Shown: positions 3,147-61,700 of the stretch, piece after piece
Layout: every line of letters starts with the position of its first letter
How positions within the stretch are numbered: position 1 is the first letter of the stretch
Assembly: GCA_050084515.1 (NCBI GenBank)
Contig: CM114271.1
Span: 13,268,001-13,332,000 of the forward strand
Direction: 5' to 3'
Length of the DNA: 64,000 nt
DNA from: Blasia pusilla
Lineage: Eukaryota
The notes under the pieces: model-generated
What the model saw: the letters and a program-made list of their open reading frames with translations, nothing else
Told to the model about the DNA's origin: nothing
Database searches by the model: none
Made by a program: the position numbers and the translations under genes

Positions 3147-4828
3147 TTATAATAAATATTTCCAAAAGGCATTAGTAAACTTTGGATCTCGATCAGACAC
3201 AATGCTCCTAGGCAATCCATGAGCTCGCCAAGAACTATCTAAGAACATTAGGGAAGTTGTATAGGCCATCATAGAATCTCTCATCGACACAAACCTCCCT
3301 AACTTGCTAAACCGGTCAACCATCACAAGTATAGCATTGTATCTCTCAGATTTTGGAAGACTCGTAATGAAATCCATGCTAATGCTTTGCAAGGGTCCCT
3401 CCGGGATCGGCAAGGGACAAAGTAACCCTTACTTCTTTGCATAAGAAACTTTGTTTGTCTGACAGGTCACGCAGGTCTTCACATATTGAGCAACATCCTC
3501 CTTCATGTTGGTCCAGAAGAACCTCTTCGCCAAAACAACAAAAATGGATTTCTCTCCTTTGTGTCATGCCAAAGGTCCATCATGGCATTCCACAAACACT
3601 TTGGTCAGTAGCTTGCCTTGGCCCACATAGATCCTGCTCTGCTTAAACCTTAGCAAACCATGCCTCAAACTTAGATTGGCCACCTTCTCGCCCCGCTTCA
3701 ACTTCCTTAGATACTCACTCGCTTGCGCATCCTTTATGCATCCTTCACGAATCCTTCTCTCCATATGTGTTTCGTTAGGGAACATTGCTCTCAAGACTTG
3801 TGTTGTCGATGGCATATGCTCATCCCTGCGACTTAACGCATCTGGAATGAATGTGGAGCTAATCCACAAGCCGAGGAAAGACAATGTCTTTCCCCGACTT
3901 GTGGATTAGATTCACATTCAGAAACACTAAGGTATCATGCCATCGAAGTTGCTTCGGTGTTACGCGATCTTGGGTCTCAAAATACTTGAGCGAAATATTA
4001 TGGGTGAATACTTGAGTCTTGTGAAGTCTCGAATAGTGACGCCACTTTATCAAACAATGAACCACCACGAACAACTATTTCTCATGAGTGGGCCATCTCC
4101 TTTCGGTGTCTTTAAGCTTCTTGCTCTCGTATGCTACAGGTCTCCCTTTTTGCACCAACATTCTGCAATCGTGAAATCACTAGCATCAGTGTGCACCTCT
4201 AGCACTTGGTCGAACTCAGCTTCATAATTGGTTCCTACGAGAGGATCTCTTTGATTTGGTTGAATGCCTTAACCACTTCCTCAGTCCATGTTGTGTTGGA
4301 AAACTTGGCGGTCCAATTTGTGAGAGGTTTCACTATTCCCAAAAAGTTCTTCACGTATGTCTAGTAAAACTAGACCGCTCAGATGAACCTCCTCATTCCC
4401 TTCCCACTGGAAGGCACTCCCCATTCGGAAATTTCGCTTACCTTCTCCGTGTCTAGAATCACTCCAAGTGCACTAACCACATGCTCGAAGAACTTGATCT
4501 TTGTCAAACCGAACTCACTCTTGTTCGCATTCGCATACAACTTGTTCGCCCTGAGTTTCTCAAACACCGTCTTCAAATTTCAAGCGTGCTCCTCTAGTAT
4601 TTTTGAATAGATGACTATGTCATATATGTAGATGATCACATTCTCATCCGTCACCTTATGAAAGATGGAGTTCATCAACGTGGTGAACGTTGCAGGCGAG
4701 TTACAAAGACCAAAAGGCATTACCACAAACTCGAACAAACCGTATCTTTTCCTTCACACAATCTTCTCCACATCCGCTTCTACAATCCGAATCTCATAAT
4801 ATCTTGATTTGAGGTCAATCCTACTGAA
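3147..4828 (-). pseudogene. Degenerate Ty3/Gypsy pol fragment (RT-RNase H-integrase) from a family distinct from the DNMT element
   Basis: RT: FSRIDLKSRYYEIRI...YGLFEFVVMPFGLCNSPATF, with YIYD in place of YIDD (~4620). RNase H: HTDASDF...WRHY...PDALSR. Integrase: SISMDFITSLPKS...VDRFSK...HGLPRSIVSDRDPKFT. Many stops and frameshifts. Confidence 0.9.
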
Positions 4829-5459
4829 TACTCCCCATGCAACATCTCCACTAGTCCTGCTCCAACCAAGTCCTGACTCCTACTCAGAATCAGAGCCCTC
4901 TCCATATCACTGTACCTATAGGGTTGTCAAAAGATCGGCGTATCACTCGACAACTCAATGCGGATCCCCAGTCCCTTCAGCGTACCCAAATCCTCCATGC
5001 TATACGCAAAGCAGCTCCTATAACTCCTGAGGAACTGATGTATTCGTCCCTGCTCTCCTTCTGTCAACTTAAGGCCCATATCTGGCTCCCAAGTCTCCAT
5101 CATGACTACGGTAGGACTCTCCGGCGCGGATATCGATGGTTGCTATGGTGCAACCCCGTCTCGAACAACAACACTCGACCGCTCTCCTGCAGCCAACTGC
5201 ACACTCTAATCTCCTCCATATGCAGTGTCCGGAACCACGCTCGATGCTATGGCTATCATCTCCTAGCGTACTTGCAAAACATCCCAAGAAGTCCAAGGGT
5301 GTCTCTCTCGATCTCCCCTGGTGTGTCAATCTCCTCGGATCTCGCCCCCAGCCACTGCCTCCACCGTCTCGATAGGCATGGGGCTCACCAACTCAACCGT
5401 TGTGATCTGTCGCGATCTCATTTGACGCTGCTCAGCCACTCCCAAGCTGAAGATCCATG

Positions 5460-6395
5460 TCAAGAAATTCAAGTCCATTGCGTGACCCAAGACATGGCGT
5501 TGTGATGCCTCTGATACTGACGGTACTGCCATCACTCCTGTGGGAAATCCCATCGCCCGCTCTCTCTTGTCAACGTTGGGCTCCACCAACCTCTAAACCT
5601 GGTCATCCCAAACCAAGCCAAGACCGGCCTCCTTGTATGCATAGGAAGCGGGAAAACTCACAAACGTGGGAAAGGCTCATCGCGGCTTGCTGACCACCGT
5701 TGATCACAGTCAACGGTGGTCGATCATCGTGCCTCACTGCTTGTGAGCGACGACCTCGATCCAGAATGGAATCCACTAACAAATGGGAGGGGCGCTCCAC
5801 TCTCGCATACGCCCTCCATAACAGCTCATGGGGCATCAAGTTGGTCCACCATAGACGCAAGCGATGGGCTCTAGAACCTACACTCGCCGTATCCAAGAAC
5901 AGTGCTGGGCCGATCCAGGCACGCACCTGATGAGCACTCGTCACCACCCGTGACTTGGAGTCTCCTAAGATGGGCACATTCTCTAGAATGTAGGTTGGAG
6001 AACGAGACTGGAGCTCCTTCAACTGCCGTAAGACCCTCAACATCTCCCAAAAAAACCTAGACCGAGTATCAGCGAACCCGCTGCCTCGTCTAGCACTCGA
6101 TTGGCCCTGACATGGCCAACCAAATATGACCAAATCAATGGTCCCTACCCGCTCTAAGTCCTGCGCCCCCAACAACAAAATATCCCTCGGTAGGGAACTT
6201 TGGTATCCCTGTATCGCAGACGCAGACAATAAGTCGGGGATACGTAAGCATAATTGTGCTATATGTCATAGTGAGACGCGCCTCACAGCATCATCACTCT
6301 CCACATACACGTATTGTTGTACTTGCACTCCTACCTGCAAAACAATAGCTAACCCGGTGCTAATCCCTCCAAAGAGATCTAACAATCGAATACCA
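5460..6395 (-). pseudogene. C5 cytosine DNA methyltransferase domain (DNMT3-like) in copy A
   Basis: Motif I IRLLDLFGGISTG; II YVYVESD; IV IDLVIFGWPCQG; VI YILENVP; VIII HRLRLWWTN; IX ERAMGFP; X RHVLGHAMD. Unpermuted order; one stop and a frameshift. Confidence 0.9.
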
Positions 6396-6799
6396 TCCTC
6401 CAGGGTAAACCACACAATGGGTGTGGTATCCAAGGGTGTTATCGTAGCACTCCCTGCTACCTCGGATTCCTTAGATCCGTCATGCTCCGGTGCAAACGCC
6501 TTGCTCCACGCGGTTTGCACGTGCTCATCTGCGAATCGTTGAAGCTCCTCAGTCGAGCCCCACAACGGCACCTCTCCTCCACGAAATGATACGGCGACCA
6601 TAACACTCCTCTCCATAGAAATATCAGGAAAGAGAGTATCCTCTGCATGGATATGTCCCTCAATCAAATCACTAGGCCAAGTTATGGCACTGCTAAATGC
6701 TACTAAGGTCGCCATCTCTCCTGGCCGTTGCTCGATCACTGCACATGTGAATCGAACAGGTAATGAGCTAAGGCGCCCATCACTTGACTGCCATCCTAG

Positions 6800-7150
6800 T
6801 CTGTAGGACGCTGACTCTTCCCAATAGTCCAGGGAAAACCCCATTGGGTATAACACTGCTCCACCAACCAAGACGTTGTAGGACTCTACATCAATCACCA
6901 TCGCCTTGGCTCGCACCACGGACTCATCTGTAGGATGTCCCGGGCAAATCCTCACCACAACCTCTTGTCGGGTGATATACTGTGTGCTACTCGCTCCACC
7001 CAAGGATGTCTGTATCTGGAATGGACAACGCTCCACATCGGCTCTCGTCAAGCCCAATCCTCTTAATGACGCTTTACCGAACATCAGGGGTTGCGCTTCT
7101 GAATCCAACAAGACGCGCTGCGGACTAAAAGCTCTACCTCTGGGACTCAC
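6800..7150 (-). pseudogene. Retropepsin-like aspartic protease of copy A
   Basis: RVLLDSEAQPLM (degenerate LLDSGA) ... YNVLVGGAVL inside ORF 6266-7243, in frame with the DNMT N-terminus. Confidence 0.75.
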
Positions 7151-7264
7151 CAACTGGAAGACCTCTCCTAGGTTATCCAGCAACACAACACCAAGAGAAG
7201 CCATGGCACGCTCTTTCACGGATCTAGCGGGCATCTCCGCCATCCTAGTAGCCGCAGCCTACCA

Positions 7265-9330
7265 TCAATCTGACGTGGACGGCCCGAGCATCTGCTCCAA
7301 GAGCAGGTCCATCATCTCCTTTGCAATCACCTTTGAACGTGATGTAAGAACTCCAAGTCCACACTCACATAGCGTAGCGGCCAGCCAAAAAGCCTCAGTG
7401 GGCGTACCCCCCAATGTCATAACATCGGAAGCAGAAAATAAAGGAGCACGGTACACAATGGTGGCCGCCCCCAACAACGTGCTTGACACATGCCCCTCTT
7501 GAGCATCAACAATATGAGTAGTCGCACTTGGTTCTCCCATCTCCCTCCGTGTCTACACACCAACAACGTCACCAACTCTCGAGGCACTCTGATCAGGACC
7601 CATCAATGGGGTCCTCATCGCCTCGGATAACGTGAAAGATTGAGGAAGCCTAGTCTATTTCCTGGCTTCCCCTCGCTGTGGATCCAACTCTGCGGCTGCT
7701 CCACGCGTCACTACTACGACTGCCTCCATGTGGGAAACCCTGCACATCCAACCAGGATCCTCCATATCTCTGGCTGCTCCATATGATGTCGATGCCACAG
7801 ATCCGGCGTTGGGTAATCTCAATGCCATTGCGGGTCATGCTCATGTAGCTGATGTATCTGAGTAGCCATCCTAGTCTCACACCCGGCATCTCCCTAGACG
7901 CGTCTAGGTGGTAGGACTCTACCTCCTCCACGGGAAGCTCCACCACCCTGTCGGGCAACTCCAGCTCCTCATTCCCCAACGAAACCACCTGGTGCACGAT
8001 CTCTAGCCCACCCGGACCGGCTACTCGCTCTGGTGCCCTCTCTGGCCCTCGGTCTGGACGTAACTCAGGATGTAAATTGAAACATCTGGTGTGTGTATGA
8101 CCATACCTCTGACAATAGTCACACTAATAACCTCCTGGTGCAGCACCATCTCCTCCTCCATGCTGAGGCACACGTCCATCACCCTGACGAGTGCAATCGC
8201 GCTGATTATGGGCTACACCACATGACCAACAAGTAATAGTAGGCGGCTTCTGCTGAGCCGCATATGAAGGCGCACGTCTCTATGTCACGGCCTCCCGGTA
8301 TCCTCAGTGAGCTTGTGGTGCCACAGTTGACCTATCTCGGAGTCCACGTTGTTGCACAGGTAGTGTAGACAATCGTGACTGCTCTCGCCCAGAAGCCATG
8401 GTGGCTACCCTCTCCTCCGCCATGTTACGCTCAATGTTCTCGGCGGTCCTGAAAACATCTCTCAACGTAGGGGAGGTGTTCATAAGAAGCACCCCTCCCG
8501 CACCCGTGTCCGCATGGTCCGGTCCAGCATAGCGTACCATGACTGGATAGCCTGAGCCTCTATCACCCCCTGAGTGACGTTGATCAACCAGCGAAAGCGA
8601 GTGTAAGCCTCACGCAAACTCTCACCCGGGCCCATCTGGAAGTTGTGGATGCTCCGCAACTTCTCCGTCCATACCCCTTGGTAGCTCGCCCTCAACTCAG
8701 CAAAGAACTCAACCACAGGGTTGAACCTCGAACAAACCCGACTAGATGGTGCAATTGCTCCCGTGTGAATGACCCCTCCTAAAACGTCACTAGTGGAAGA
8801 GGAAGTAGCCTCTCCTAACTCCTCCTCCTCATCTGGGAATGGCTCCGTCCATGACACATAATGTGGGTCATAGTAGAGCCTCCACGCCTCGATCTCACGT
8901 GCATATCTTTGAGAGAACTCATGGTAATCGTCTATGGGTGCCCCCTCTAAATGCTGGAACATACCGTTCCATGCTATAAACGGGTTGAACTCTCTAGAGT
9001 TCTGGCTCGCTGGGAGTCGCACCAACTCCTAAACTCTGCTATGAAAACGTGCAACTCAATCGTGCCTACTGCACCTGAAAACTTACGCGGTCCTCTACCC
9101 CGATCGTCCATCTCGTACGCCCAACTGGTAGGACCACTCACAATGTGTGGCAATGTGCTCACAAACTCCTCTACACGCTCCCCCTTGTCTGAAGATGACA
9201 CAAAAGGAGATCGAGGTGGTCTCTCACGTGGAAACCCTCGAAACCTCGCACCACTCCGGGTAAACCCTCCAGAGCTACTCTCAGGTCTACTACCTTGCCT
9301 CTCAAAATCTTGAAAGGACGCCGTGATGGC
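7265..9330 (-). pseudogene. Gag-like region of copy A with two zinc knuckles
   Basis: Frameshifted ORFs 8974-9201, 8480-9025 (FQMGPGESLREAYTRF, a Gag major-homology-like segment) and 8304-8540. CWSCGVAHNQRDC (~8195-8232) and CDYCQRYGHTHTRC (~8083-8124) read on the minus strand. Confidence 0.8.
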
Positions 9331-12300
9331 CCTCGTGCCCCTATCACACGATCACTCTCAACCTTGCGAGTAATCCTTCAATCACTCATCCCAAACATGC
9401 GGCACTCGATCTACACTCTCCCTCCCCGAGACGTGTAATGTGCGGCAACAAGCAGCGTGGTGCAGCAAATCGACCAGGCTATCATCTCATCAACAACCTA
9501 CCCTAAACTCCGGATATCCCACACAGGTCTATGTCCCCTAAACCACATACATAAATGATGCTCTCAGCATCCACACACCCAATATCCCTAGATAAACTAC
9601 CCAAATCCTAGAATCCCTCACACGTGCAGGGTAAAGGACCAGAATGGGTAACCTGAACACATGTCGATGTCGCTTTTCAGCAATTGCAAATCTCGACCCC
9701 AACTCGGTTGTGGAGACAACTCCTCCAATCAGCAAGTCATACTCCTCCCGTATTGACGCTGCTTAAAACTCCTTGATGGACACTTCGGTTCCAGGGGAAC
9801 GGTGCGGCGTTGCAGGCGGCACATAACGACTACGAACGGCACGGCCCTCGATGGTGAGATGCGGCACTCGGCGGCATACCCTCCTCAATCAACAATCAAC
9901 CCACACTCTACTCCACAATGACGGTGCTGCTCCGCGATCAAGATGGTGCGGTGCGGCCACAAGCAGCACGGCGCCGCAAATGGCGGCGCATTGCGGCTAC
10001 GGGCGTCACGGTACGGTACTCGATCGTCGTCGACCGGCTACCAATCACAACATAGCAGCATGAAATCAAAACTCAAACACCATAACCAAAGGTCATCTAC
10101 CATCACTGGTTGATGACAAAACTGCGATGACGGTGGCGGCCAAACCAAAGTAAGTGATGGTGACGCAAGTCAGAGAATCATCAGTGGTCGTGGAAGACCC
10201 TCCACTTCGAAATGGCAGCAATGGCAACCAAAGGATGAACAACAGCCGAATGCAACTCTCAGCAATGTTGGGCAATGGCAACGGCCAACGGTGGCCGGTG
10301 GACCATTGATGGTGACGGTTGACCAGAGACCAGAGACGGTGACTAGGACGGCGACGACTGCCGCCGTCGTGGCGGCTGGTTTAGGGTTTGAACAATGTAA
10401 CCCTAAAAATCACCTAGCAATGGTAGTTTTGCAAGATTGATCATAAATTTTTACTCGCAACTCCAAATTATGCACGTGCATAGCTTCACGATCTTCAACA
10501 ATTTCAAAAAATATTTGGAATTGGACATTTCAGTAAAAATTGACAGGGACTGTCGTAAAGCCCAATGTCTCTTTCTCCTACACAAATTTTGGCAGCGCTT
10601 CCGCGCTAATTTCTCCCAACTAAAATGTAAAACCTGTAAAAATATAAATCAGCAAGCTACATGGTGCTCCCGAGAGCACCGGCATGGGGCAACCCGCCCC
10701 CATGATCAATCCCTATCAGAAATTGGGCAGCGCTTCCGCGCGCCACTCTTCCACGCAAAAAATCAGAAAATGCAAAGAATAATCAAAGCAGCCCTTGCTC
10801 TAGTGAGCACTCCCATGAGCCGCTAAACGGGGAACAAGGTCCCCAACCTGCAAAAATAGCGAGTGACCAGCGAGCTCCCCCATGAAGCTCTCTCATTCTC
10901 TCATTCTCTCTTTGTAAAGTAAGATCCAATCTCCCTCTACACCATCTCACACCATAGCTCTCAAAGATGTGCACTCTCTCTCATGTCAAACCAAACCCAC
11001 TCTCCTAATGAGAGGCTCGGGTTACACTCAGAAGGCAAGGAACCATAGCTCCGCCGCCTCATGCCAAGAGGTTCAATAAAGAGAGAATGAGCTCTCAAGC
11101 TCTCTCTCCTTGAGGTTTACCCCTCCCCTCACCCAAGCTCTCTCCATGGTAACCTATTCTCCCAAGTCACCTCCTTGGCTCTTGACCTGATGTAGGAGGT
11201 CAACGAATACTTACCAAAAATAGAAAATATATATTCAAAATGGTACTTACCTAAAATAGGAAGTTCCTCAATATGGCTCCAAATGAGCCGAAACGAAGGG
11301 GAAACCTGCTCTCTCAGGTTTCCAAGGCCTGAGCAGGTCATCCTCAACCTACTGAGGATGCCTGTCCTCCACTAATCACGAAGGCGCTCTACTAGATCTC
11401 ACCGATCTATCCTAAAAGACGTGACACATGATAGTTGCTCAACGGGAGAAATAAATGCTTAACTAACCCCCCCGCACCTCCCAAACTAACCTCTCAACTA
11501 GTCCCCCTTAACTAATTTTGCTTAGTCAGGCTCCGGTCCTTCTCATGAACTCATGCGGTGTGTCGTGTCAGATTTTAGTCTTATTATCTAAGTGTACGTG
11601 CGATGCACGGATGTATAATTTTGAATTATCTATTCTAAGTGGAAAATTGAATTTAAACGATCCTATCGGCTTGGACAACTAACGATTCTATGGGCAAAAA
11701 AGAAAATATCATCACAAAATTTGGAGTTATGTCATTTTGATATCAATTACAAAATTATCTGTATTTGATGTATTTATGATGTCAATTGTGTACTAAAACT
11801 TTTTATAAAAAAAAATTATGCATAAAATTGACATGGAAAATTTATTGACATAAAAGATCAATATCAAAAAATTTATTTAATTAGTATCAAATAAATATGA
11901 AAATTAGCCATATCAGATTTCATGGTAAAATTATATTGAAGTTAGCACCCTCTAACTTTCGTGATGGTGTCTAAAGGAGAGGTGATCTCAAAATGAAGAG
12001 GCACTCTCTAATAATAATATAGATATTGAAACACAATGTAGTTGTGTGTAGGGTGTCATGTTTATTCTGCCATCACTCGCAAAGTTACATTGTTATATCA
12101 TGACATTATTGCTTACATTTGGGACTAATTGTTACATCATTAACTAATGATGGATACCCTTGAGGTTGCAAGAGAGGAAGGAAACTTTGAGGCAAAAAAT
12201 AGTGCAAATTTTGGCCATGAGCCATCCAGACATTTGAACCAACATCATTTTTCGACAGAGGATGTCAAAAACTTTGCTAGAAAAAATGACAGGGAGAATT

Positions 12301-23924: not shown

Positions 23925-24265
23925 TGTTCTGTCCTTTATAGTACATCAAACCGGATCTGTAAGTACATGTAGGGTGCCTTTGAGGAGTTTAGAGTACAAC
24001 CTCAAGAGGCCAAGGATGACCTACTAAGTGTTAGGGTAACGTGAAAGAGCAAGTTTTTATGTATTTTGGGCTCTTTTGGAACCATATTGAGGAACTAACT
24101 ATTTCAAGAAAGATCTTATTGTGAATATAGTTGAGTTGCCTTTTCATTTTAGGAAGCAACCCTTAATCTACTATTTCAGGTCAAGAGCATGATGTGACTT
24201 ATGTAAAAAAATTACCAAAGATCGAGTTTGGGGAGAGGGGGAAGAGATAAACCCAAGGAAAGGTG
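23925..24265 (+). mobile_element. Old diverged relic of the DNMT-Gypsy left-terminal (A) sequence
   Basis: AGGATGACCTAC...GAGCAAGTTT...CCATATTGAG...CAGGTCAAGAGC...GGGAGAGGGG is colinear with 24457-24700. Confidence 0.6.
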
Positions 24266-26519
24266 TTAAAAGGAAGTGATTACCTAAAACATCCATTCGT
24301 GATCCCTGTCGTTATAGAATGGAGAGTGTAGGTTGTGATCTTATATTGAGTAGGAAACGATTCCTTATATACAAATTTGTCACGTCTTTTAGGATAGATT
24401 GGTGAGATCTAGTAAAGCGCTTTCACTAGTAGTGAAGGACAGACTTAGGAGGTTGAGGATGACCTACCGAGGCCTTGGGAAACTTGAGAGAGCAAGTTTC
24501 CCCTTCGTTTCGGCTCATTTGGAGCCATATTGAGAAGCTTACTATTTTAGGTAAGTACCATTTTGAGTATATGATCGACTTTATATTTTTTGTAAATGGC
24601 CTTGACCTCCTACATCAGGTCAAGAGCCAAGGAGGTGACTTGGGAGCATAGGTTACCATGGAGAGAGCCTGGGAGAGGGGAGGGGTATACCTAAAGGAGG
24701 GAGTTTGAGAGCTCATTCTCTCTTTGTTGAACCTCTTGGCATGAGGCTGCGGAGCTATGGTCTTGCTTGCCTTATGTGTGTAACCAAAGCCTCTCATTAG
24801 GAGAGTGGGTTTGGTTTGACATTGAGAGAGACATGTGAAAGTGGACACATTTGAGAGCTATGGTGTTGAGAGAGATTGGATCTAGATTTACAAAGAGAGA
24901 ATGAGATGAGTGAGAGAGCTTCATGGGGGAGCTCGCTAGGCGCTCGCTGGTTTTTCCAATTGGGGATCGTATTCCCCGTTCAGCAATTCATGGGAGTGCT
25001 CACCGGAGCCAAAGCCGCTCATTTTTTATGTTTCCTTTGTTGATTTTTCGTGTAGAAGAGTGGCGCGCGGAAGCGCTGCCTAATTTTTAATAGGGATTGA
25101 GTATGGGGACAAATTTTGCCATGCCGGTGCTCTCGGAAGCACCATGTAGCTTGTTGATTTGTGTTTTCACAGGTTTTACATTTTTTTTGGGAGAAATCAG
25201 CGCGGAAGCGTTGTCAAATTTTGTGTAGGAGAACGAGACATTGGGCTTTACAACAGTCCCCGGTAGTTTTTACTGGAATCTCCGATTCAAAATATTTTTT
25301 GACGTTGTCGTATATCATGAAGCTATACATGCTATTCATCAAATGGTGCACAATTTAGAGTTGCGAGCAAAAATTTATGATCAATCTTGCAAAACTGCCA
25401 TTGCTAGGCGATTTTTAGGGTAAAATTGTTCAAATCCTAAATCAGCCGCCGCACCGGCGGCGGCCATTGCCGTCATAATCACCATCAATGTTCAACCATC
25501 ACCATCGATGGTCAATTTTTATCGTCAATGGTCCACCCGCACCATCAACAGTCAACCGTCACCGTCGACGGTCAATTGTTATAGTCAATGGTCCATCGTC
25601 ACCATCAACGGTCCACCGTCAACGGTCCATCTTCGCCGTCCACCGTTGACCTTCGACCATCGACCGCCGCTATTACCTACAGCCGCTTAGAGCCGCGTTC
25701 GGCCGTTGTCCGCCGTTGGTTGCCATTGCCACCATTACGGAGTGGATGGTCTTCCACGACGACCATTGATTCTCCGACTTGCGCCGCTACCACGTACTTT
25801 GGTGTGGCCGCCATTGACATCATAGTTTCATCATCAACGAGAGATGGCAAGTGACCTCGGGCTATGGTGTTTGAGTTTTAATTTCATTTTTCTATGTTGT
25901 GATTGGTAGCCACTCGACGACGATTGAGTACCGTGCCGTGACGCCCGTAGTCGCAACGTGCCGCCGATTGGCGCGCCATGTCACTCATGGCTGCACCACA
26001 CCATCTTGATCGCGGAGCCGCTCCTTCAATGAGAAGAAGAGCATGTGTATTGCTGATTGAGGAGGGTATGCCATGGAGTGCCGCATCCCATTATCGAGTG
26101 CCGTGCCATTCTGTAGCCGTTCCGTGCCGCTAGTGTCGAACCGGATCCGCACTGCATATTGAGGAGGTTTGAGCAGTGTCACTACGAGAGGAGTACGACT
26201 TGTTGATTGGAGAAGTTGTCTTCACGACCAAGTTGGGGTCAAGATTTGCACTTGCCGAGGAGCGACATCGACATTATTGTGAGGTTACCCATTTTGGTCT
26301 CTTACCCTGCATGTGTGAGAGATAGACCTGTGTGGGATGTCCATAGTTGAGGATGGTTTTTTCGATGAGACTATAGATCAGTTGATTTTCCGCACCATGC
26401 CGCTTGTAGCCGCAATGCACACATCTTGGTGAGAGAGTGTAGCTTGAGTGCCACATGTTAGATTGAGTGATTGCGTGATTACTTGTGAGGTTGAGAGTGA
26501 TCGTGTGAGGGGGGCACAA

Positions 26520-28500
26520 GGGTCATCACGGTGTCTTTTCAAGACTTTGAGAGGCAAGGTGATGGATTGGAGAGTAGCTCTAGAGGATTTACGCGGAGTG
26601 GCATGAGGTTTTGAGGGTCTCCACGTGCGGGGCCACCCTGACCTCCTTGTGTGTCATCTTTAGACAAGGAGGAGGGCGTGGAGGAGTTGAGTAGTGCTTT
26701 GCCACTCATATTGAGTAGTCCTACTACTTGGGCGTACGAGATGGACGATCGGGGTAGAGGACAGCGTAGGTGCAGTAGGCACGATAGAGTTGCACCACTT
26801 CATCACGGAGTTTAGGAGTTTGTGTGACTTGCACCAAGCTAGGAACTCTAGATAGTTCAACCCGTTTACAGCATGGAATGGTATGTTCCAGCATTTAGAG
26901 GGGGCGCCTATGGATGATTACCATGAGTTCTCCACAGATATGCCCAAGAGATTGAGGCATGATGACTCTACTATGACCCACACTATGTGTCATGGACGGA
27001 GCCGTTCCCATATGAAGGGGAGGAGTCAGGAGAGGCTACTTCCTCTTCCATCAATGATGTTTTAGGAGGGATAACTTGCACTATAGCAGTTGCACCATCC
27101 AAGCGGGTTCGTCCCATGTTCGACCCCATGGTTGAGTTCTTTGTTGAGTTCAGGGCGAGCTACCAGGGGGTATGGACGGAGAAGTTGCGGAGCATGCACG
27201 ACTCCTAGAGGCATGCTATCCACTCATGGTACGCGATGTTGGACCGGACCCTGCCGACACGGGTGCAGGAGGGGGTACTTCTTATGAACACCTCACCTAC
27301 ATTGAGTGATGTTTCTAGGACCGTCGAGAACATTGAGCACAACATGATGGAGGAGAGCGTAGCCACCATGGGTTCTGGGCGAGAGCAGTCACGATTGCTT
27401 GCATCACCAGTGTAGCAACGTGGACTCCAAGATAGGTTGACTGTGGCACCACGAGCTTAGGGAGGATACCGGAAGGCCATGCCATAGAGACCTACGCCTT
27501 CATATGCGGCTCAGCAGCACCCGCCTACGATTACTTGTTGGTCATGTAGTGGAGCCCATCATCAACGCGATTGCACTCTTCAGGATCATGGACGTGTGCC
27601 TTAGCATGGAGAGGAGATGGTGCTGCACCATGAGGTTATCAGTATGACTATTATCAGAGGTATGGTCACACACGCGCCAGGTGTTTCAGTTTATACCCTG
27701 AGTTACGTCTAGACCAAGGGCTAGAGAGGGCACCAGAGCAAGTAGCTGGTCCGGGTGGGCCTAGAGCTCACCCACCAAGTGGTCTCGTTGGGGGACGAGG
27801 AGCTGGAGTTGCCCGACAGGGTGGTGGAGTTGCCCATGGAGGAGGTAGAGTCCCACCACCTAGATGTGTCAAGGGAGACGCCGGACGTGAGGCTGGGATG
27901 GCTGCTCAGATACAGTAGCTACAAGAGTAGATTGCCGTTATGGCATTGAGATTACTTGATGTCGGATCCATGGCATCAACATCATATGGAGCAGCCAAAG
28001 ATATGGAGGATCCTGGTTGGATGTGCGGGGTTGCCCAGATGGAGGCCGCCGCACATGTGACGCGTGGAGTAGTTGCAGAGTTGGATCCACGACGAGGGGA
28101 AGCCAAGAAACAGACCATGCTTACTCAGTCTTTCACTTTGTCCAAGGCAATGAGGACCCTATCGATGGGTCTTGATTAGAGTTCCCAGAGAGTTGGTGAT
28201 GTTATTGGTGTGCAGACACGGAGGGAAATGGGAGAAACAAGTGCGACGACTCCTATTGCTGATGCTCACGAGGAGCATGTGTCGAGTATGATGTTGGGGG
28301 CATGATGGTGTACCGTACTCTGCTATTTTTTGCTTCCGATGTTATTTCATTGGGAGGTACGCCCTCTGAGGTGTTCTAGCTGGTCGCTACGCTATGTGAG
28401 TGTGGAGTTGGAGTTCTTACATCACGTTCAAAGATGATTGCAGAGGACGTGATGGACCTGCCCTTGGAGGAGATGCTCGGGCTGTCCACGTCAGATTCAT
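26520..28500 (+). pseudogene. Gag-like region of copy C
   Basis: ORF fragments 26883-27208 and 27755-28179 align with the gag of copy A; degenerate Zn knuckles at ~27535 and ~27645. Confidence 0.8.
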
Positions 28501-28971
28501 GGTAGGCTACGGTTGCTAGGATGGCAGAGATGCCCGTTAGACCCACGATAGAGCGTGCTATGGCTTCTCCTAGTATTTTGTTGTTGGATAACCAGGGAGA
28601 GGTCTTCTAGTTGGTGAGTCGCGGAGGTAGAGCTTTTAGTCCGCAGCGCGTCTTGTTGGATTTAGCAGCATTTAGTAGTGCCTTGACTTGGCCTAGTGAT
28701 TTGATTGAGGGACATGTCCATATAGAGGATACTTCTGTTCTTGACATTTCTATGGAGAGGAGTGTCATGTAGTCGCATCAATCCGTGGAGGAGTGGTATC
28801 GCTTTGGAGCTCGACTGAGGAGCTTTGACGCTTAGCCACTAAGCATGTGCAGACCGCGTGGAGCGAGACGTTTGCACCAGAGTGTGATGGGTCAGAGGAA
28901 CCCCAGGTAGGCAAGAATGCTACTATGACCCCTTTGGATACCTCCACGATTGTGTGGTGCATCCCAAAGCA

Positions 28972-29920
28972 GGGTATTCGGGTGTTGGATCTCTTTGGAG
29001 AGATCAACACTAGGCTAGTTGTTGTTTTGCATGCTGGAGTGCGCGTGCATAAGTACCAGTATGTGGAAATTGATGATGTTGCAAGGCGCGCTTCACTTCA
29101 CCATGTGGCATAGTAACGCCTCCGTTTTCCCAACTTGTTGTCTGCATCCGCTATTCAAGGTTACCAGAGTTCCCTACGAGGGACATTTCATTGTTGGGGG
29201 CACAGGCCTTGAGCAGGTAGGGACCATCCACTTTGCCATTGCTGGTTGGCCATGTTAGGGCCAGACGAGTGCTGGACGGGGTAGCGGATTAGCTGACTCT
29301 CAATCCATGTTGTTTTGGGAGATTATGCGGATCTTGCGACACTTGTAGGAGCATCAATGTCGTCCTCCAGCATACATTCTGGAGAATGTGCCAATTTCGG
29401 CCAATTCGAGGTCCCGTATGGTGATGAGTGCACATCAAGTGCGAACATGGATCGGCCCGACAGTTTTGTTGGATGTGGCGAGTGTGGGTTCAGGACCACA
29501 TCGCCGGCGTCTTTGGTGGACCAACTTGGTGCCACATGAGGTATTACGAAGGGCTTATGCGAGAGTGGAGCGTCCATCCGATTTGTTGGTGGATTCTATA
29601 TTGGATCCGGGCTGTCGATCATGGCCAGTGAGGCATGATGTTCGACCGCCATTGACTGTGGTTAACATGATTGGCATGCTACAAGCAGCCTTTCCCACAT
29701 TGGGTGAGTTTTCCTGCTTCCTATGCATTCAAGGAGGTCGGACGTGGCTTGGTTTGGGATGACCAGGTAAAGAGGTTGGTGGAGCCCAGCGCTGATGAGC
29801 AAGAGCAAGCGATGGGATTCCCCATAGGAGTGGCGGTAGTACCGTCACTATCAAAGGCATCACGATGTTATGTCTTGGGTTAGGCGATGGATCCGAACTG
29901 CTTGACATGGATTTTCAACT
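28972..29920 (+). pseudogene. C5 cytosine DNA methyltransferase domain (DNMT3-like) in copy C
   Basis: GIRVLDLFGEINT (I), YVEIDD (II), IAGWPC*G (IV), YILENVP (VI), PHRRRLWWTN (VIII), EQEQAMGFP (IX), RCYVLG*AMD (X). Confidence 0.9.
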
Positions 29921-30399
29921 TAGGAGTAGCTGAGCTGCGTCATTTGAGGATGCAACAAATCACAGTAGTTGCGTTGGTGAGCCCCATGCCTACTGAGACG
30001 GTTGAGGCAGTGGTTGAGGGCGAGACCCGAGGAGATTGACACACCAGGGGTGATCGGGAGAGAAACCCTTGGACTTCTTGCGATGTTTTGCAAGTATGCC
30101 ACGTGATGGTAGCCACAACATCAAGCGTGGTTTTGGGTACTGCACATGGAGATCAGATTTTGCAGTTGGCTACATGAGAGAAGTCAAGTTCCGTTGTTCG
30201 AGACAAGGTTGCATCATAGCAACCACCTACACCCACACCGGAGAGTGCTACCGTAGTCACGATGAAGACTTGGGAGCCAAATATGGGCCCTAAGATGACA
30301 CGAGGAGAGCGGCGTCGGATACATCAATTCCTGAGGAGTTATAGGAGATGTTTTGCATTTAGCATATAGGATTTGGGTACGATGCAGGGTCCAGGGATC

Positions 30400-31680
30400 C
30401 GCATCGAGTGACACGCCGATCTTGTGACGACCCTACAAGTACAGTGACATGGAGAGGGCTCTGATTCAAAGTAGGAGCCAAGACTTGGTTGGAGCAGGAC
30501 TAGTAGAGATGTCGCATGGAGAGTATACATCTGCCACTTTCATGCCAGCCAAGAAGGATGTGCATGGCAACTAGACGGATAGGCGGATGTGTGGAGATTA
30601 CCGACCTATCAATTGGCAGACAAAGTCTGATAGGTATGCCATGCCCACCCTTGAGGAGATCTGTGATGTTATTGGGCAAGCAAATGTCTTCTGTTCGTTA
30701 GATCTTCGAGCTGTATACCATTAGCTGCCTATCACATTGGAGGACAGGCAAAAGACGGCATTTTGAGGTATCGATCCTTACGGGAAGGATTGTTTGTACC
30801 TGTGGCGGTTCTTACCATTTGGGTTAAAGAATGCCCCGGCTGAGTTTCAGAGGATCATGGATAGGATCTTAGCAGGTCTGAATTTTGCTAGGTATTACAT
30901 TGATGACAATGTAGCCTTTAGCGCCACGGTTGAGGAGCATGAGCGACGTCTAGAGGAGGTGTTTCGACGATTGCAGTTACATGGGTTGAAGCTACATCCA
31001 GGCAAGTGCAAGTTCTTCTACGACCAGATTGAGTACCTGGATCATACAATATACCCAAGGAGCCTTGGTGTGTAGCGACAAAGGTAGAGGCTACTTCACG
31101 CATTCCACGCCCTAGAGATGTGAATCGAGTTCGTGCATTCATGAGATTGGCGAACTTCTATCGACGGTACGTCAAAGGTTTCAATTCGATTCCAAAGCTG
31201 CTAACCTTGTTGACCAAGGTGGATTAGAAGTGGCACTGGGGGATGAGTAGGAGAGAGCATTTCAGCTGCTCAAGGATGTCTGCGCCCATATTGAGGAGAT
31301 CGATCAGGGGCGCCCTTTTCAGTCGCATACCGATTGGAGCATGTTGGGGCTTGGAGCTATGCTCACCCAACATGACGAGGATGGTAGAGATTTTGTAGTG
31401 GCTTATGCTAGTCGCTCGAACAATGTTGTAGAGACAAAGTATAGCTCGTATGAGGGTGAGTGCTTGGTTGCAGTGTGGGTTGTTGCACATTTTAGATGTT
31501 ATGTATTCGCCAATCCCTTTACCATCATTACTGATCATCAGCCACTTAAGTGGTTGATGGAGTCTGATAAGCTTACAGGAAAGCTTGCGAGGTGGGCTCT
31601 TTTGTTGCAGGAGTATGACTTTCAGGTGGTGCATAGACCTGGGATGCTCAACTAGGATGTAGATTGTTAGAGCCGTAAGC
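30400..31680 (+). pseudogene. Reverse transcriptase and RNase H of copy C
   Basis: MPAKKD...RMCGDYRPIN...DRYAMPTLEEI, LPFGLKNAPAEFQR, YIDD (30896-30907). RNase H: TDWSMLGLGAML, YASRSNN, YSSYEGECL, ITDHQPLKWL. Confidence 0.93.
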
Positions 31681-32069
31681 CATGCTCAAGTTAGCGAGAT
31701 GCGACTGGAGCTCGTTGGCATGATGAGAGTGATGAGGAGTTGGTGCCAAGATGGCACGCGTCAGCCTATTTGGGCTTGTTGGCTATGGACAGCCAGACTG
31801 CTGAGACTTTGATGGCGAGGTTTGATGGAGAGTCCTTAGATCCAAAGGCCAATGAGGAGACGACAGGTGGCCGAGACATTCATGACGATGCAATGGTCTT
31901 GGAGTACGTGCGTACTGGCAGCGCCGCGAGCACAATGGATGGTAGAGAGCGGGATCGGATCCTACAGCAAGCTAGACAGTTCCGATGGGAGGGGACACAT
32001 GTGTTGCGAGTGTGGGAGGATGGTAGAGTGCGTGTAGTGCCTCATCCTTCGCAAAGAGCAGGTTTGGTG

Positions 32070-32960
32070 CGTCATGCCCATGAGGGGTTGGGTCATTTTG
32101 GAGTGAAGCGGACGTACAACTTGCTCTAGATTCAGTATTGGTGGCGAGGCATGCACATTGACGTTCAGCAGCTTGTTGCTAGATGCATGGTGTGTGACCG
32201 AGCCCAGGAATCGTTCGATGCTCTGACTCCATAGTTGCATCCACTTTCGATTATGGGTTTAGGTTATAGATGGAGTTTGGATTTTGTAGGACCTTTATCT
32301 TTAACAGAGCGTCATAGTCGTTTTGTGTTGGTGATGGTTGACCACTTCTCCAAGTGGATATAGTTGGTTGCATTTCCTGACAAAGCGAGTGAGGGAGTAG
32401 TATATGCATTCCTAGATTGGGTTCTAAGTCATTACGGCGCATCAGCTGAGGTGTTGACAGACCAGGATACAGAATTCCACAGGGAGTTTCAGGCCTTGGG
32501 TGATCAGGCATTGATCGACCACCGCACTACTTCGCGAGATCATCCTGAGGCGGATGGACTAGCAGAGCGGGTTGTGCTGAGAGGATTACGCAAGTATGGC
32601 TTGCAGAGAGGTCACCTAGGAGATTCGGACCTTCAGTTGTCGTGGTTGGCGATGGGATATAGATTTAGCATGCAAGCATCCTTAACGTCTTTCTCATCGT
32701 ACTTGGTGCTTTATGGCTGTGAGCCAGATTTACGTATGGCTATTCTTCGAGATGTTGGTGAGGTGTTGAACCTTGATGACCTTGATGTATGGATGAGAAT
32801 ATGTTCATAAGGGGTTGAGTTGTTCCGGAGAATAATGCCCATGGCGTTTGAGAACTTGGCGATTGCGTAGCATCAGGATACATTAAGGTATGCGACTATT
32901 CGGGAGGGTGGTTATCGACCTACTATCCGGAGATTTCATCAAGGAGACTATGTCTACTAG
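32070..32960 (+). pseudogene. DDE integrase of copy C
   Basis: HHCC motif (HAHEGLGHFG...CMVC), WSLDFVG, VLTDQDTEF, DGLAERVV. Confidence 0.92.
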
Positions 32961-33167
32961 CAGCAGATGGCACCCACAATATTGGATGTGACTGCATGGC
33001 ACACCATCTTTAGAGTGCGTGAGGTTTTGCCATCAAGTGTTCTCTTATTGGAGGGACGTGATGGTATAGTTTGGAAGGACCATGTGCGTAACTGTGTGCC
33101 GTGTCACCTTCCGAACATTGACGGTATAGTTGATCCGAGCTTAGCTGTAGTTCTTGCATGCTTGCGA

Positions 33168-33302
33168 TGTATGTTGTGTGGTTCTGCTCGTGGTGCAGCC
33201 ACTATGCAAGTCTGTGATGGATGTTCGAGAGGATGGCATATGGCATGCTTGACGCCACCTCTCACTAGGGTTCCTCAAGGACGATGGATATGTCCCAAAT
33301 GT
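33168..33302 (+). other. PHD finger (C4HC3) at the integrase C-terminus of copy C
   Basis: CMLCGSARGAATMQVCDGCSRGWHMACLTPPLTRVPQGRWICPKC. Confidence 0.92.
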
Positions 33303-33487
33303 ACATAAAGTAGGTAGTTCTATATTCCGACTTGTGTTTGTGACATGGATGACAAGAAGGCGACTAATGATGGGGCCACATGAGCACCCGCCCTTTTTGC
33401 TCTTAGTGTCCGAGAGATGTATGTCATTGTACGTAGGGATAGATGGTTATCTGGAGTTAGAGAGACCTAACCACCAACTAGGGGGGC

Positions 33488-33617
33488 AATTGGAGATATT
33501 TTGGTACTTCTTGTCTCATTTTTTTGGATGCCATGAGTTAGCATGGGATCGTGCGTGTTTGTGTGTATGTTCGGTGACAACTATGTATGTTGTGTAGCGA
33601 TGTGTATGCGCACGACA
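33488..33617 (+). repeat. Terminal repeat B1 (130 bp)
   Basis: Directly follows the PPT-like tract; closely repeated at 34043-34173; ends CACGACA. Confidence 0.9.
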
Positions 33618-33619
33618 GT

Positions 33620-34043
33620 TGTCATGTCTTTTAGGATAGATCAGTAGTAGGTTTTTCCTTCGTTTCGGCTAATTTGGAGCCATATTGAGAAACTTACTAT
33701 TTTAGGTAAGTACAATTTTGAGTTTATGGTCAACTTTCTATTTTTTGTAAATGGACCTTGACCTCCTACATCAGGTCAAGTGCCAAGGAGGTGACTTGGG
33801 AGCATAGGTTACCATGAAGAGAGCCTGGAAGAGGGGAGGATATACCTCAAGGAAGGAGCTTGAGAGCTCATTCTCTCTTTGTTGCCTCTTGACATGAGGC
33901 GGCAGAGCTATGGTCTTGCTTGCCTTGTGTGTGTAACCCAAGCCTCTCATTAGGAGAGTGGATTTGGTTTGACATTGAGAGAGACATATGAGAGTGCACA
34001 GATTTGAGAGCTATGGTGTTGAGAGAGATTAGATCTTGATTTA
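33620..34043 (+). repeat. Terminal repeat A2 (copy of 24378-24890 with an ~90-bp internal deletion)
   Basis: TGTCATGTCTTTTAGGATAGATC...CCTTCGTTTCGGCT...GAGAGATTAGATCTTGATTTA aligns with the left end of C. Confidence 0.9.
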
Positions 34044-34173
34044 ATTGGAGATATTTTGGTACTTCTTGTCTCGTTGTTTGGATGCCATGAGTTAGCATGG
34101 GATCATGCGTGTTTGTGTGTGTGTGTTCGATGACAACGATGTATGTTTTGTAGCGATGTGCATGCACACGACA
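34043..34173 (+). repeat. Terminal repeat B2
   Basis: AATTGGAGATATTTTGGTACTTCTTGTCTC...CACGACA, a copy of B1. Confidence 0.9.
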
Positions 34174-34758
34174 ACTTGTACGTATGAATGATTGGCGCCG
34201 ACTACCTTCACTAGAAGAATGGGTCTTGACGAAACATCATATATCCTTGTACCTATACTCTTTGATAAAAATATACCGAATATGAGAAGTCTATATTTGA
34301 AAATTTTATTTGAACGAGAGAAGGATAGACATTACAATCAATACCATACAAAAGTCGTGGAGATTAACCGCCCCATCAAATAGGGAATATCCCTAAGTTT
34401 GGATATTATAACAAAACATGGTTTTCTAAAACTTAGCATTTTTAAAAAACTCAATGTTTTAAAATTTTGTACAATTTAAATGTGAAAGTTATTCATAAAC
34501 TCTAATAATAATCTGAAAATAAAAAATATCTGAAATTACATATTTCCTTGTAGATACCTTCAACTTTTTGAAATTTATTTTGACCTAAACTAATATTACT
34601 TTTGAAATCTGTGTAGATGTGGTCAGATTCATGCGCGCATTTATGGATTATAGATCAGATTTTATCTAATATTAGAACTGAGGGTTGCGAGATTTTTTCG
34701 CTCAAACACTGACGTCCTTTTCATTAAATTTATTATATGTATATATTTATTCCGAAAT

Positions 34759-57500: not shown

Positions 57501-57589
57501 AGATGGATTGTTCTTGTTAAGATAAAAGCCAAAAATGATATCATCCTAGCGAGCTAGACGGTTTCGATGGGAGGGGCAACATGTGTTGC

Positions 57590-58738: not shown

Positions 58739-61700
58739 TGTCGTGCGAATCCACATCGTCATACAACATACATCGCTGACATACCATACGCACATACATA
58801 CATAACATAGACGAGAGTATCCACAAACGCAAGTGTACCACAACTCGCCCCCCTAACTGGCGGTTAGGTCCCTCTAACTCCCAGGTAGCCCTATACATCT
58901 ACTACATGCTATACACCTTCTTGGGTGCCCGAATCAGAAGGCCGGGTGCTAGGTTGCCCCATCGTTAGTCGCACATGTGTAATCTATATCATGCAAAGAT
59001 CAAGTCATCTACCTCTCCTAAGTACATCGAGGACAAACCTACCTTCCAGTAGGAACAACATCCAAATGTGGAGTCAAACACATCATGTGCCAACCCCTAG
59101 AACACCGATCACACACCAACATACGGGCGTGCGTTGCCAGAGACCCACACAACATGCACCTCAAGCTAGCACGTATCATGGCTAAGCTTGGGTCAAGATA
59201 CCATCCACATTTGGAAGATGACATGGCGCACAATTACGCACATGGTCCTTCCAAACAACTCCATCACGACCCTCCAACATGAGAACTCCGAAGCTAACAC
59301 CTCACGCGACTTTGGTAAAATAGTGCGGCCTGCCATCACATCCAACGTTGTCGGGCACCTGCTGCAAATAGACATAGTCCCCACATGGAACCTACGAATC
59401 AATGGTCGATAACCTCCACCCGAATGGTTGCATACCGCAACGTATCCCTGTGTTGAGCAATGGCAAGATTCTCAAAGGCTGTTGGCATAACTCTCTGAAA
59501 GAGCTCCGCCCGCTGAGAACACACTCTCATCCACATCTCTCGGGTCATCAAGGTTCACCACCTCACTAGACTCCCGACAAATTTTCTTTGGCAAGTCCGG
59601 ATCTCGCCGATAATGTAAAATAAGGTGAGAAGGAAGCCAAGGATGCTTGGCGATCGAACCTATACCCCATGGCTAACCATGGCAATCGAATATCCGGTCT
59701 CAAGATGCCCCTTCAGAGGCCATACTTACGCAATGCCCTCTTCACCGCCTCGAACCACACGCTCAGCCAAACCATCCGCCTCTGGATGATCTCAAGACGT
59801 GGTCCGATGATCAATCAACGCCTTGTCACACAAGACCAAACTCACTCAAACTCAGACCTGGTCGGTCAAGACTTTAGCGGGTGCACCAAAATGACTAAGC
59901 ACTCTATCCGAAACGCATACGCGTTCCCTCACTTGCCTTGTCCGGTAATGCCACTAACTCAATCCACTTGGAGAAGTGCTCCACCATCACCAACACATAT
60001 CGATGATGTCGTACAGTCAACGGTACCGGTCCCGCAAAGTCCACACTCCAACGGTAACCCAACCCCATAATAGGCAAGGGGTGTAATTGTGGTGTAGGGG
60101 CATTAAATGATGCCCTCACCCGGTCACAAAACCATACAACGTGACACCAACTACTGCACCTGAGTATGCATGCCACGCCACCAATACTGGCCAAGGTGTA
60201 AGCTATACGTACGCTTTACCCCAAAATGTCCCAACTCCTCATGGGCATGTCGCACAATGCGCTCTCTCTGAGTCAAATGTGGCACTTCTCGTACTCTACC
60301 ATCCTCCCATACGCGGAGAATATGTGTTCCCTCCAATCGATACCTCTTAGCACGTTGAAGAACACGGTCTCGCTCCTTGGCACTCACTATGCCTGGCACC
60401 CTACTGGTCCGTAGGAACTCCAATACCAACGCATCATCATGAATATCACGCTGATCCGCACCACCATCTCCAACCTTAGGATCTCAAGGTGGCCATCTAC
60501 CCTCGACTAGAGTAAGATATCATGTGGTCCTCCATACTAGAGTCCACCTAACCAACATAAAAGGCGGATGCATGCCAACCTGGCACCATCTCCTCATCAA
60601 CCTCGCCATGCCATCTAGCCCCAGCTTGTATCCTCTTGGCTAGTACATGGGTTCCTACTCAACCCATCAAGATCAAGGTTGGCAACTCCAGGTCTATGTA
60701 CCACCCGGAAGTCATACTCTGTAAGATAAGAGCCCACCGTGCAAGCTTCCCTGTAAGCTTGTCCGACTCCATCAACCACTTGAGCGGTGGTGATCGGTAA
60801 CAAGGGTAAGCGTGTGCCAAACAAGTAACACCTAAAGTGTGCCACAGACCCACACTATTGCCAAGCACTCTCCCTCATATGAACTATAGCGACTCCATTT
60901 GCATTATTCGAACGACTTGCATAGGCCACCACAAACTCCATGTGCTCATCATCATGTTGTGTCAACACCGCTCCAAGTCCCAACCTACTCCAATCGTGAG
61001 TAATGAAATGGGCGCCCTCGATAGGTCTCCTCAAGATAGGCGCCGCCACCAATGGGCCTTAAGCTCCACACAAAAGCTCTCTCCGATCATCTCCCGAGTG
61101 CCACTCTTGATCTGATTTCAGCAATTGGTTCAAAGGCTTTGCCATAGCACTAAATCCCTTCACATACCTTCGATAGTAGTTCGCCAATCCCATGAATGCT
61201 CGACCTCTACTCACATCTATCGGACGCGGAATAAGTGCAATAGCCTCCACCTTTGCTTGCTGAACTCCCAAACCACCTGGATAGATCACATGACCCAAGT
61301 ACTCAACATCCTCATGGAAGAACTTACACTTTCCTGGATGCAACGAGACCATGAGCTTTCAACCGCTCAAACACCATCTGCAAATGTATCGATGCTCCTC
61401 CACCGTGTTATGAACACCAAGATATCATCAATGTAACACCGAACAAAATCCAACCCCGCTAGGATCCCGTCCATCACTCTTTGAAACTCGGCGGTGCATT
61501 CTTCAACCCAAAGGGTAAGAATTTCCACTAGTACAAACAATCCTTGCCATGAGAGTTGACACCCCAAAATCTTTGTCTTGGCCTTGTCACTCTCCCGAAT
61601 CGGCAATTGATGGTATCTCGCCGAAGATCAAAGTACTGAAAATCTTTGCTTGTCCCACCACATCAAAGATCTCCTCGTAGTGTAGGCATGGCATACCTAT

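Follow-up and report, generated by a model that had tools for sequence, protein, structure and literature searches.

Retroelements that encode a tyrosine recombinase are inferred to integrate from a circle, as in the Goodwin–Poulter replication model, and those of the PAT, Ngaro and VIPER type are not known to make a regular target site duplication (TSD). For elements with long terminal repeats (LTRs) and for retroviruses, circles with two LTRs are generally treated as by-products or a dead end. The window analysed here, a stretch of 64,000 nucleotides from Blasia pusilla (assembly GCA_050084515.1, contig CM114271.1, positions 13,268,001 to 13,332,000), contains an old, broken Gypsy element with a DDE integrase, copy C, whose repeats are split in the order A1...B1-A2-B2. 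The window holds three copies labelled A, C and D; family C is named after copy C and family D after copy D. The split arrangement and the occurrence of solo A-B derivatives (compare SIRE) are common to these families and to PAT, Ngaro, TOC1, VIPER and SymbioDIRS (PMC6681497, PMC5890265). In contrast to PAT, Ngaro and VIPER, families C and D lack a tyrosine recombinase and have instead a DDE integrase, TSDs, a Ty3-like reverse transcriptase (RT), a polypurine tract (PPT) and a primer-binding site (PBS). Judged from these features, the split layout looks convergent with that of the tyrosine-recombinase elements.

The layout has one printed precedent, KnitGypsy-Dnmt3 of Klebsormidium nitens, for which the legend to Fig. 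4c of de Mendoza et al. 2018 (PMC5890265) gives DIRS-type repeats with Gypsy domains. A sequence-only reading of the window had regarded an A...BAB layout as atypical of integrase-bearing Gypsy elements; families C and D are such Gypsy elements, but in the light of this precedent they are not the first of their kind. Like KnitGypsy-Dnmt3, they combine Gypsy domains, a DNMT3-like domain after the protease and DIRS-like repeats (PMC5890265), and the element appears to be a clear relative of it. They differ in a copy number far above that of KnitGypsy-Dnmt3 and in their frames: DNMT to integrase lie in one frame in KnitGypsy-Dnmt3, whereas an in-frame TAG stands between frames in family D. The passages on KnitGypsy-Dnmt3 in PMC5890265, the only source naming ‘KnitGypsy’ in the literature searched, contain no TSD, attachment (att) palindrome, PBS, PPT or mechanism. 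Streptophyte Gypsy-DNMT3 elements are mentioned in passing in the accessible text of a 2026 preprint (10.64898/2026.05.21.726589), and the accessible part of bioRxiv 10.1101/2022.05.23.493040 has nothing on Gypsy. Our literature search returned no TSDs, att palindrome, PBS or mechanism for such elements, although subscription papers, Repbase reports, the Craig 2021 thesis and the REXdb supplements may describe them; within it, neither the explanatory anatomy nor an argument for circles as the regular route of integration turned up.

The split-repeat layout in the genome

Self-BLAST of the window pairs 24496-24890 with 33651-34043 (A repeat, 91.9% identity) and 33488-33617 with 34043-34173 (B repeat, 90.9% identity), which bears out the repeat positions given for copy C by the sequence-only reading with slightly refined limits. 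All features of copy C lie on the + strand. A1 (24378..24889) is the promoter-bearing part of the 5’ LTR (distal U3, R and U5) and starts with the TG half of the att palindrome, and B1 (33489..33617) is the PPT-proximal U3 part of the 3’ LTR. A2 (33620..34042), the remainder of the 3’ LTR, has a private deletion near its start that makes it ~89 bp shorter than A1 and occurs only in copy C. B2 (34044..34173) ends with the CA half of att; it would have belonged to the 5’ LTR, as its B part, and have come to this end by way of the circle. Copy A (4825..11426, − strand), the 5’ part of a family C relative (~80%), starts at TGTCACG without an upstream B, as does copy C. Copy D (58739..64000, − strand), which belongs to a separate, younger family with 70% identity to copy C, has an A...B layout and ends at CACGACA without a following A; its 5’ end lies beyond the window at G000:C1:13336020. 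These observations on the ends of the three copies had been made before and hold.

Copy searches in the 390-Mb genome assembly showed that in two high-copy Gypsy families the A...B-A-B layout is the usual one. A 3’-end query for family C returned 24 B-A-B arrangements and 6 solo A-B units among 30 loci, and an unbiased query that stops at the end of B1, and so cannot favour any particular following sequence, returned B-att-A in 28/30 loci and B alone in 2/30. The 3’ ends of family D read B-A-B in 29/30 cases, with copy D as the sole exception; the counts of 28/30 and 29/30 each include the window’s own copy. At the other end, an upstream B was present in none of the 26 scorable 5’ ends of family C (30 loci) and in none of the 18 of family D (20 fetched stretches). 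Exact-pattern searches, whose counts are lower bounds, gave at least 604 A-PBS 5’ ends for family C and at least 762 for family D, that is, at least 1,366 5’ ends of both families in the genome. In family D, whose copies are 97-98% identical to each other, at least 330 exact matches extend from att through A and the A2|B2 joint (J) into B. The two whole, identical LTRs that the sequence-only reading had named as the alternative for most intact copies were not seen; in the copies compared, the ends are A and B, each one part of the LTR.

Pairing of ends was less complete in family C: of the 29 5’ ends fetched, 15 lacked a matching 3’ end in the adjoining 12 kb, and a further 5 could not be scored, L034 among them with a mismatch. 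Searches for the 5’ end of L107 and for the 3’ ends of L261 and L262 found nothing. Two unusual arrangements were also encountered. At L029, B-A-B is followed by a second PPT-B-A-B, a local 3’-end duplication in which the joints differ between the units, and two head-to-tail family C copies lie 9,630 bp apart (G000:C25:10649 and 20279) on a 50-kb contig, representing a tandem array or an assembly leftover.

Four-base duplications enclose the whole A...BAB unit. In family D, 15 of 18 pairs of flanks are exact 4-bp TSDs and the other 3 are unmatched, and in family C the 10 scorable pairs comprise 7 exact and 3 with one mismatch. Copy C is among the latter: its flanks AATT (24374..24377) and ACTT (34174..34177) are a decayed 4-bp duplication, and the former statement that there was no convincing TSD is overturned at the family level. 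Duplications are likewise found at solo A-B units (2 exact and 3 near among 5 scorable) and at A...B units (ACCA/ACCA at copy D, exact, and CCTT at L095, exact). None of the 27 tabulated TSDs fits NCGN, and families C and D, which are long elements, are in this respect unlike REXdb Phygy, which has a short internal region and prefers NCGN targets. The 4-bp duplications point to a DDE integrase as the integrating enzyme.

The layout could also be a chance local event, with a deleted copy or solo A-B LTR inserted after a truncated element, or an error of assembly; this would accord with the existence of solo A-B units (6/30 loci) and with the private A2 deletion in copy C. We give this explanation next to no weight, since the 330 exact matches occur in family D alone, one TSD encloses the whole A...BAB unit, and the same layout with TSDs recurs in the independent metagenome contigs L179 and L235. 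The suggestion that 33620-34173 is a separate deleted insertion is accordingly not borne out, a single TSD spanning the whole unit. By comparison, the A...B copies (copy D, L095) can stem from recombination between B1 and B2 as well as from 1-LTR circles. The derivation of copy D from a 1-LTR circle put forward by the sequence-only reading is therefore possible, but recombination also suffices; for solo A-B units and A...B copies alike, a circle origin and a recombination origin are both possible.

Limits of the LTR and the internal att palindrome

A G-rich PPT adjoins B1 in families C and D (AGGGGGG in copy C, 33480..33486, directly 5’ of B1). At the opposite limit, the 16 nucleotides 3’ of A1 (24890..24905) are the exact complement of 24712-24727 within A1 and form a self-priming PBS adjoining the end of A1, with 24712..24727 as the candidate self-primer. 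The PBS-complementary stretch inside A lies ~25-30 nt downstream of a TATA-like box; in copy C this putative promoter element is weak (24686..24695, 26 nt upstream of the self-primer), and a clearer TATAA stands at the same spacing in family D and L235. The complement reaches at least 11 nt in 15/16 ends of family D and at least 9 nt in 11/23 ends of family C, as compared with at most 8 nt in 460 control 25-mers, and the metagenome elements L179 and L235 have complements of 17 and 15 nt with different sequences. Thus, in three unrelated families, the PPT adjoins B and a self-priming PBS adjoins A. No tRNA-type PBS follows A1, so that the previous statement that a PBS is absent holds for the tRNA type but overlooked the self-priming site directly after A1. 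The complementarity suggests a self-priming chemistry, as in Tf1 and Tj1, whose PBS is complementary to a stretch of the 5’ LTR (PMC4600332).

Because the positions of PPT and PBS define it, the reverse-transcribed LTR is B-GC-A. An LTR of the form A+B with a lost 5’ LTR was considered and is ruled out by the PPT and PBS positions and by the 762 + 604 A-PBS ends. The proposal of the sequence-only reading that the true LTR is B+A is supported by these limits as well as by the shared repeat variants, the variation of J, the RNA and the mirror copy described below. With canonical self-priming Gypsy elements (Tf1, Tj1 and Tcn1; PMC4600332, PMC6317226), families C and D have in common protease, RT, RNase H and integrase (PR-RT-RH-INT) with a DDE integrase, TG...CA, a 4-bp TSD, a PPT and an LTR-complementary PBS. 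They are distinct from them in that integrated copies lack two whole terminal LTRs, att is internal to the LTR, and the polyprotein carries a PHD finger and a DNMT3-like domain, with no chromodomain found in the element.

The two copies of each repeat share variants within an element. Minor alleles of B1 and B2 occur in both repeats in 13 cases and in a single repeat in 0 in family D, and in both in 18 and in a single one in 2 in family C; A1 and A2 likewise share lineage variants within a copy. No fixed difference separates the first from the second repeat in the larger sets, and in a small set of 8 from family C the majority letter differs at a few sites undergoing decay. The sharing of variants in both pairs therefore indicates that the A pair and the B pair are each copied from one template in each round.

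At the boundary of B1 and A2 lies the internal att site, CACGACA-GT-TGTCATG in copy C (33611..33626), whose family form with GC is the palindrome GACAGCTGTC with the core GACA-GC-TGTC. The spacer is GC, AC, GT or AT in 52/56 cases in family C and 19/21 in family D, and decay at CHG sites in the family D repeats amounts to 0.099 per site. The GT of copy C (33618-33619) is a decayed GC; the spacer recognized in the sequence-only reading is thus conserved as GC or its decay products, but GT itself is not the family form. Derivation of the spacer from target DNA is ruled out, as the spacers fit decay of CAG/CTG sites.

Among 50 metagenome loci, those with enough sequence, the att core (at most 3 mismatches) was found 3’ of the integrase gene in 22, as compared with 0.5 expected from shuffles; it was unmatched in the other 28, many of which may be truncated. 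The core is kept in families with 46-61% integrase identity in which A and B are otherwise unlike, and the contigs L179 and L235 contain complete A...BAB elements with the TSDs AAGG and GGTC. The layout is family-wide and conserved across distant families, and the integrated ends derive from the internal palindrome GACA-GC-TGTC. Integration through the internal CACGACA-NN-TGTCAYG junction, as had been suggested, is supported by the conserved att and the TSDs.

Length changes at the retained att, examined as possible end-joining scars of later cutting, occur in 8/29 copies of family D and 4/60 of family C (2 of these 4 in a nearby T run). A1/A2 indels away from att amount to 0.11 per 19 nt per pair, are clustered in few copies and may be assembly error. 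The family D copies L123, L125, L129, L135 and L138 carry 4-6 small A1/A2 indels despite few substitutions while others have none, a possible assembly error.

Joint J, transcripts and the proposed integration intermediate

In copy C, J (34036..34050) would be the ligation of two cDNA ends and contains one extra A at 34043, identical to the first base of the PBS. In family C, the joints divide into precise and +A forms in ratios of 10/16, 7/3 and 18/8 in three subfamilies, with 5 others, and the J of a distant family retains A, AA or AAT, with which that family’s PBS begins. J of family D is uniform in 28/29 copies, with one filler insertion; filler or extra letters occur at L127, L029 and L114. 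The A2|B2 joint thus behaves like a ligation of cDNA ends, that is, a 2-LTR circle junction.

Transcripts were inspected in three stranded runs of ordinary RNA-seq, chosen by species label. Sense RNA covers PPT, B1, att and A2 at ~80-340x and declines towards the end of A, and depth in the B2 bins is below 1x in all three runs (63 nt of B2 in the reference). Reads at the end of A running on into the PBS numbered 26 and 14 in two runs. In addition, reads in all three runs (10, 7 and 3) skip 97 nt at L121:1803-1901, comprising the PPT and half of B1, with ends that are not GT..AG; this is a deleted genomic copy or an RNA event. At L121:1816-1852, family C reads match family D over the 36 nt that precede B but continue into family C’s B, and therefore both families are transcribed and the stretch upstream of the PPT is conserved.

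These data bear on replication of the PAT or Ngaro type, in which a transcript would contain the full B1-A2-B2, J would be inherited and the internal B-A junction would template both ends. The layout matches that of PAT, Ngaro, VIPER and SymbioDIRS, and one contig of run X1 crosses J. However, B2 has an RNA depth below 1 in the three runs, each subfamily contains both J variants, and PPT and PBS lie exactly at the repeat limits in unrelated families; furthermore, no tyrosine recombinase match was found in 104 frames, and TSDs and a DDE triad are present. Such a route is very unlikely here.

A circle with two LTRs holds two att sites, and opening of the PPT-side att predicts a mirror arrangement, A-B-GC-A...B. 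The four att-A-PBS matches in family D are three head-to-tail dimers and one mirror copy, L254/L258, which reads A-B-GC-A-PBS...PPT-B and is flanked by the exact TSD AAGT/AAGT; a second search pattern in family D found only this mirror again. The seven matches in family C comprise five dimers, one partly deleted mirror, the 3’ end of which was not found, and one unresolved case. Recombination would not readily produce a mirror, which therefore speaks for an intermediate with joined ends. The 8 dimers with PPT-B-GC-A-PBS may be the reciprocal of solo formation and are hence not counted for circles. The rarity of mirrors indicates that the two att sites are unequally used, and it rules out symmetric cutting of the circle.

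Together, these observations suggest the following route. The RNA would start in A1 and end in A2. Tf1-type self-priming and otherwise ordinary reverse transcription would yield a linear cDNA, B-GC-A...B-GC-A, whose ends would lack TG...CA att sequences. Ligation of these ends, probably by host end joining, would give a 2-LTR circle with the joint J. The integrase would make cuts 2 nt apart in the palindrome of the PBS-side LTR, 3’ of CA on both strands, and insertion of the two halves with a 4-bp stagger would give A...B-GC-A-B, the only arrangement able to be copied again. We infer the existence of the circle, the cutting by integrase and the ligating activity, and in our view the probable route is insertion, as A...BAB, of a 2-LTR circle that the DDE integrase has cut open at the internal palindrome. 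The origin of copy C from such a circle, as already proposed by the sequence-only reading, is supported by the variation of J, the stop of the RNA before B2 and the mirror copy.

Two other routes share most of these predictions. In the first, no free circle exists: the integrase cuts the left-end att of the linear cDNA and inserts the halves, and host repair joins the cDNA ends in the chromosome to form J. The same product, TSD and J variants are predicted, and the position of the left att, 107-185 bp from the DNA end as compared with 290-510 bp for the right att, could explain the strong bias. By comparison, this route predicts frequent failed joins, whereas J is intact in 28/29 family D copies and TSDs match in 15/18, and we regard it as unlikely. 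In the second, RT makes an end-to-end template jump, the plus strand leaving A clamping on B’s first letter, the shared A, to give a circle, a concatemer or a linear A...BAB without host ligation. In its favour, A is the first letter of both PBS and B in each of the three families examined, and most joints J are precise. The filler and extra letters of J at L127, L029 and L114, however, look like end joining, and the jump alone yields no mirror copy unless a circle forms, which renders it somewhat less plausible still.

Several observations weigh against the opening of a 2-LTR circle by integrase. No circle or cDNA was observed. J of family D is near-uniform (28/29), less ragged than end joining often is; the +A at J could partly be assembly error, some copies having many 1-nt indels; and the proportions of J variants differ somewhat among subfamilies (p = 0.052). 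The X1 contig, of RNA or DNA, crosses J by 30 nt, and a single pile of read starts (L121:2122, in 1/3 runs) lies 32 nt upstream of the predicted start. Only one mirror copy is verified by a TSD, and family D has 4 att-A-PBS matches to 762 5’ ends and family C 7 to 604, with pattern stringency that is not identical; symmetric cutting predicts ~50% mirrors, and ~1% or fewer are seen. One of two identical att sites is thus used in ~99% of events, for which we found no explanation. Selection for an att bias is expected, as only A...BAB keeps the promoter, the R repeat and an intact att. A speculative and rather improbable proposal is that the DNMT3-like domain marks the early-made LTR strand, so that the att sites become methylated on opposite strands and the integrase picks the productive one.

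Opening of a circle junction by a DDE enzyme has parallels. IS3- and IS30-type elements insert via circle junctions, HIV-1 integrase reportedly cleaves the junctions of 2-LTR circles, and a model of 1984 is said to have made the circle the precursor for retroviral integration. In foamy virus, the integrase cuts 2-LTR junctions at their palindrome (PMC1180852). In these junctions, a DDE enzyme opens a palindromic CA-NN-TG in double-stranded DNA, as proposed for families C and D. In foamy virus and HIV-1, the palindrome arises where the two ends are ligated, and this route is disputed or at most accessory, whereas in families C and D it is templated in U3, lies apart from the ligation point and its use is apparently regular.

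Coding domains, neighbouring sequences and implications

The element is ~9-11 kb long with long non-coding parts, and its domain order between 26844 and 33305, established with natural frames of the younger relative, is gag, protease, C5 methyltransferase, RT, RNase H, integrase and PHD finger. The gag region of copy C (26844..28167), with stops and frameshifts, was located by tblastn with the natural family D frame, on which a weak Retrotrans_gag match lies. The aspartic protease region (28323..28733) is partly deleted in copy C; the LLDSGA motif in P0001 aligns with a K. nitens protein. It is followed by the DNMT3-like C5 cytosine methyltransferase domain (28796..30090, broken in copy C), with PF00145 at E 5.6e-9 on the family D frame and best PDB matches to DNMT3A (E 4e-14). 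RT and RNase H (30226..31646, broken) have Ty3 RT as the best solved relative (PDB, E 4.5e-71). The DDE integrase (31650..33305, broken) contains an HHCC domain, residues D215, D274 and E309 that are invariant in 15 relatives, and a C-terminal PHD finger. No Pfam match to a tyrosine recombinase was found in the 104 frames (13 + 4 + 87) of copy C and one family D copy.

The integrase shares 48% identity with K. nitens KFL_009030040, to which protease plus DNMT are 33% identical, and it is 43-48% identical to proteins of Chlamydomonas, Pleodorina, Haematococcus and Tetrabaena. Such green-algal relatives, together with the CHG-type decay, would fit a green-plant host. Chlorophyte PHD-finger Gypsy elements such as Gypsy-7a_cRei also have a PHD finger on the Gypsy polyprotein (PMC9940879). 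In the legend for that element, compared by description only, LTR subparts are indicated and the left LTR is 8 bp short, which is not A...BAB (PMC9940879). In family D, an in-frame TAG lies between the Gag-PR-DNMT frame and the RT-RH-INT-PHD frame in 8/19 scored copies (for example, L150:8555-8557), and small indels shift the frames in the remaining 11/19. Expression of pol by read-through or separately appears possible. Several close relatives are stand-alone proteins of ~1,040 aa. A 354-aa antisense frame over the start of gag (L150:4181-5242, − strand) has no Pfam match.

Elsewhere in the window, 57543-58739 (+ strand) is a 3’ fragment of a family C relative and the insertion target of copy D, and a degenerate A-like repeat piece (69%) lies just 5’ of A1 at 24013-24267. 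At 15959-20001 and 3165-4831 there are remnants of another related family, the third (~66%), and of a Gypsy pol that is more distant (27-31% protein identity). A 508-aa open frame with leucine-rich repeats (LRR) at 50142-51668 (− strand) is probably part of a host LRR gene. No tRNA genes were found in the window.

For annotation, tools that demand two terminal LTRs likely misplace or miss these elements, and LTR dating must use the A1/A2 and B1/B2 pairs. Beyond the two families, we lean towards the view, with somewhat less confidence than for the opening of the circle itself, that an old green-lineage Gypsy clade integrates regularly from 2-LTR circles via a U3 att palindrome and has so reached the split-repeat design with a DDE integrase. 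If true, this would show a way from an ordinary LTR to the split repeats of tyrosine-recombinase elements, and, with an abundant, transcribed family in which end joining has to precede integration, the use of circles by a DDE integrase could be put to a direct test.

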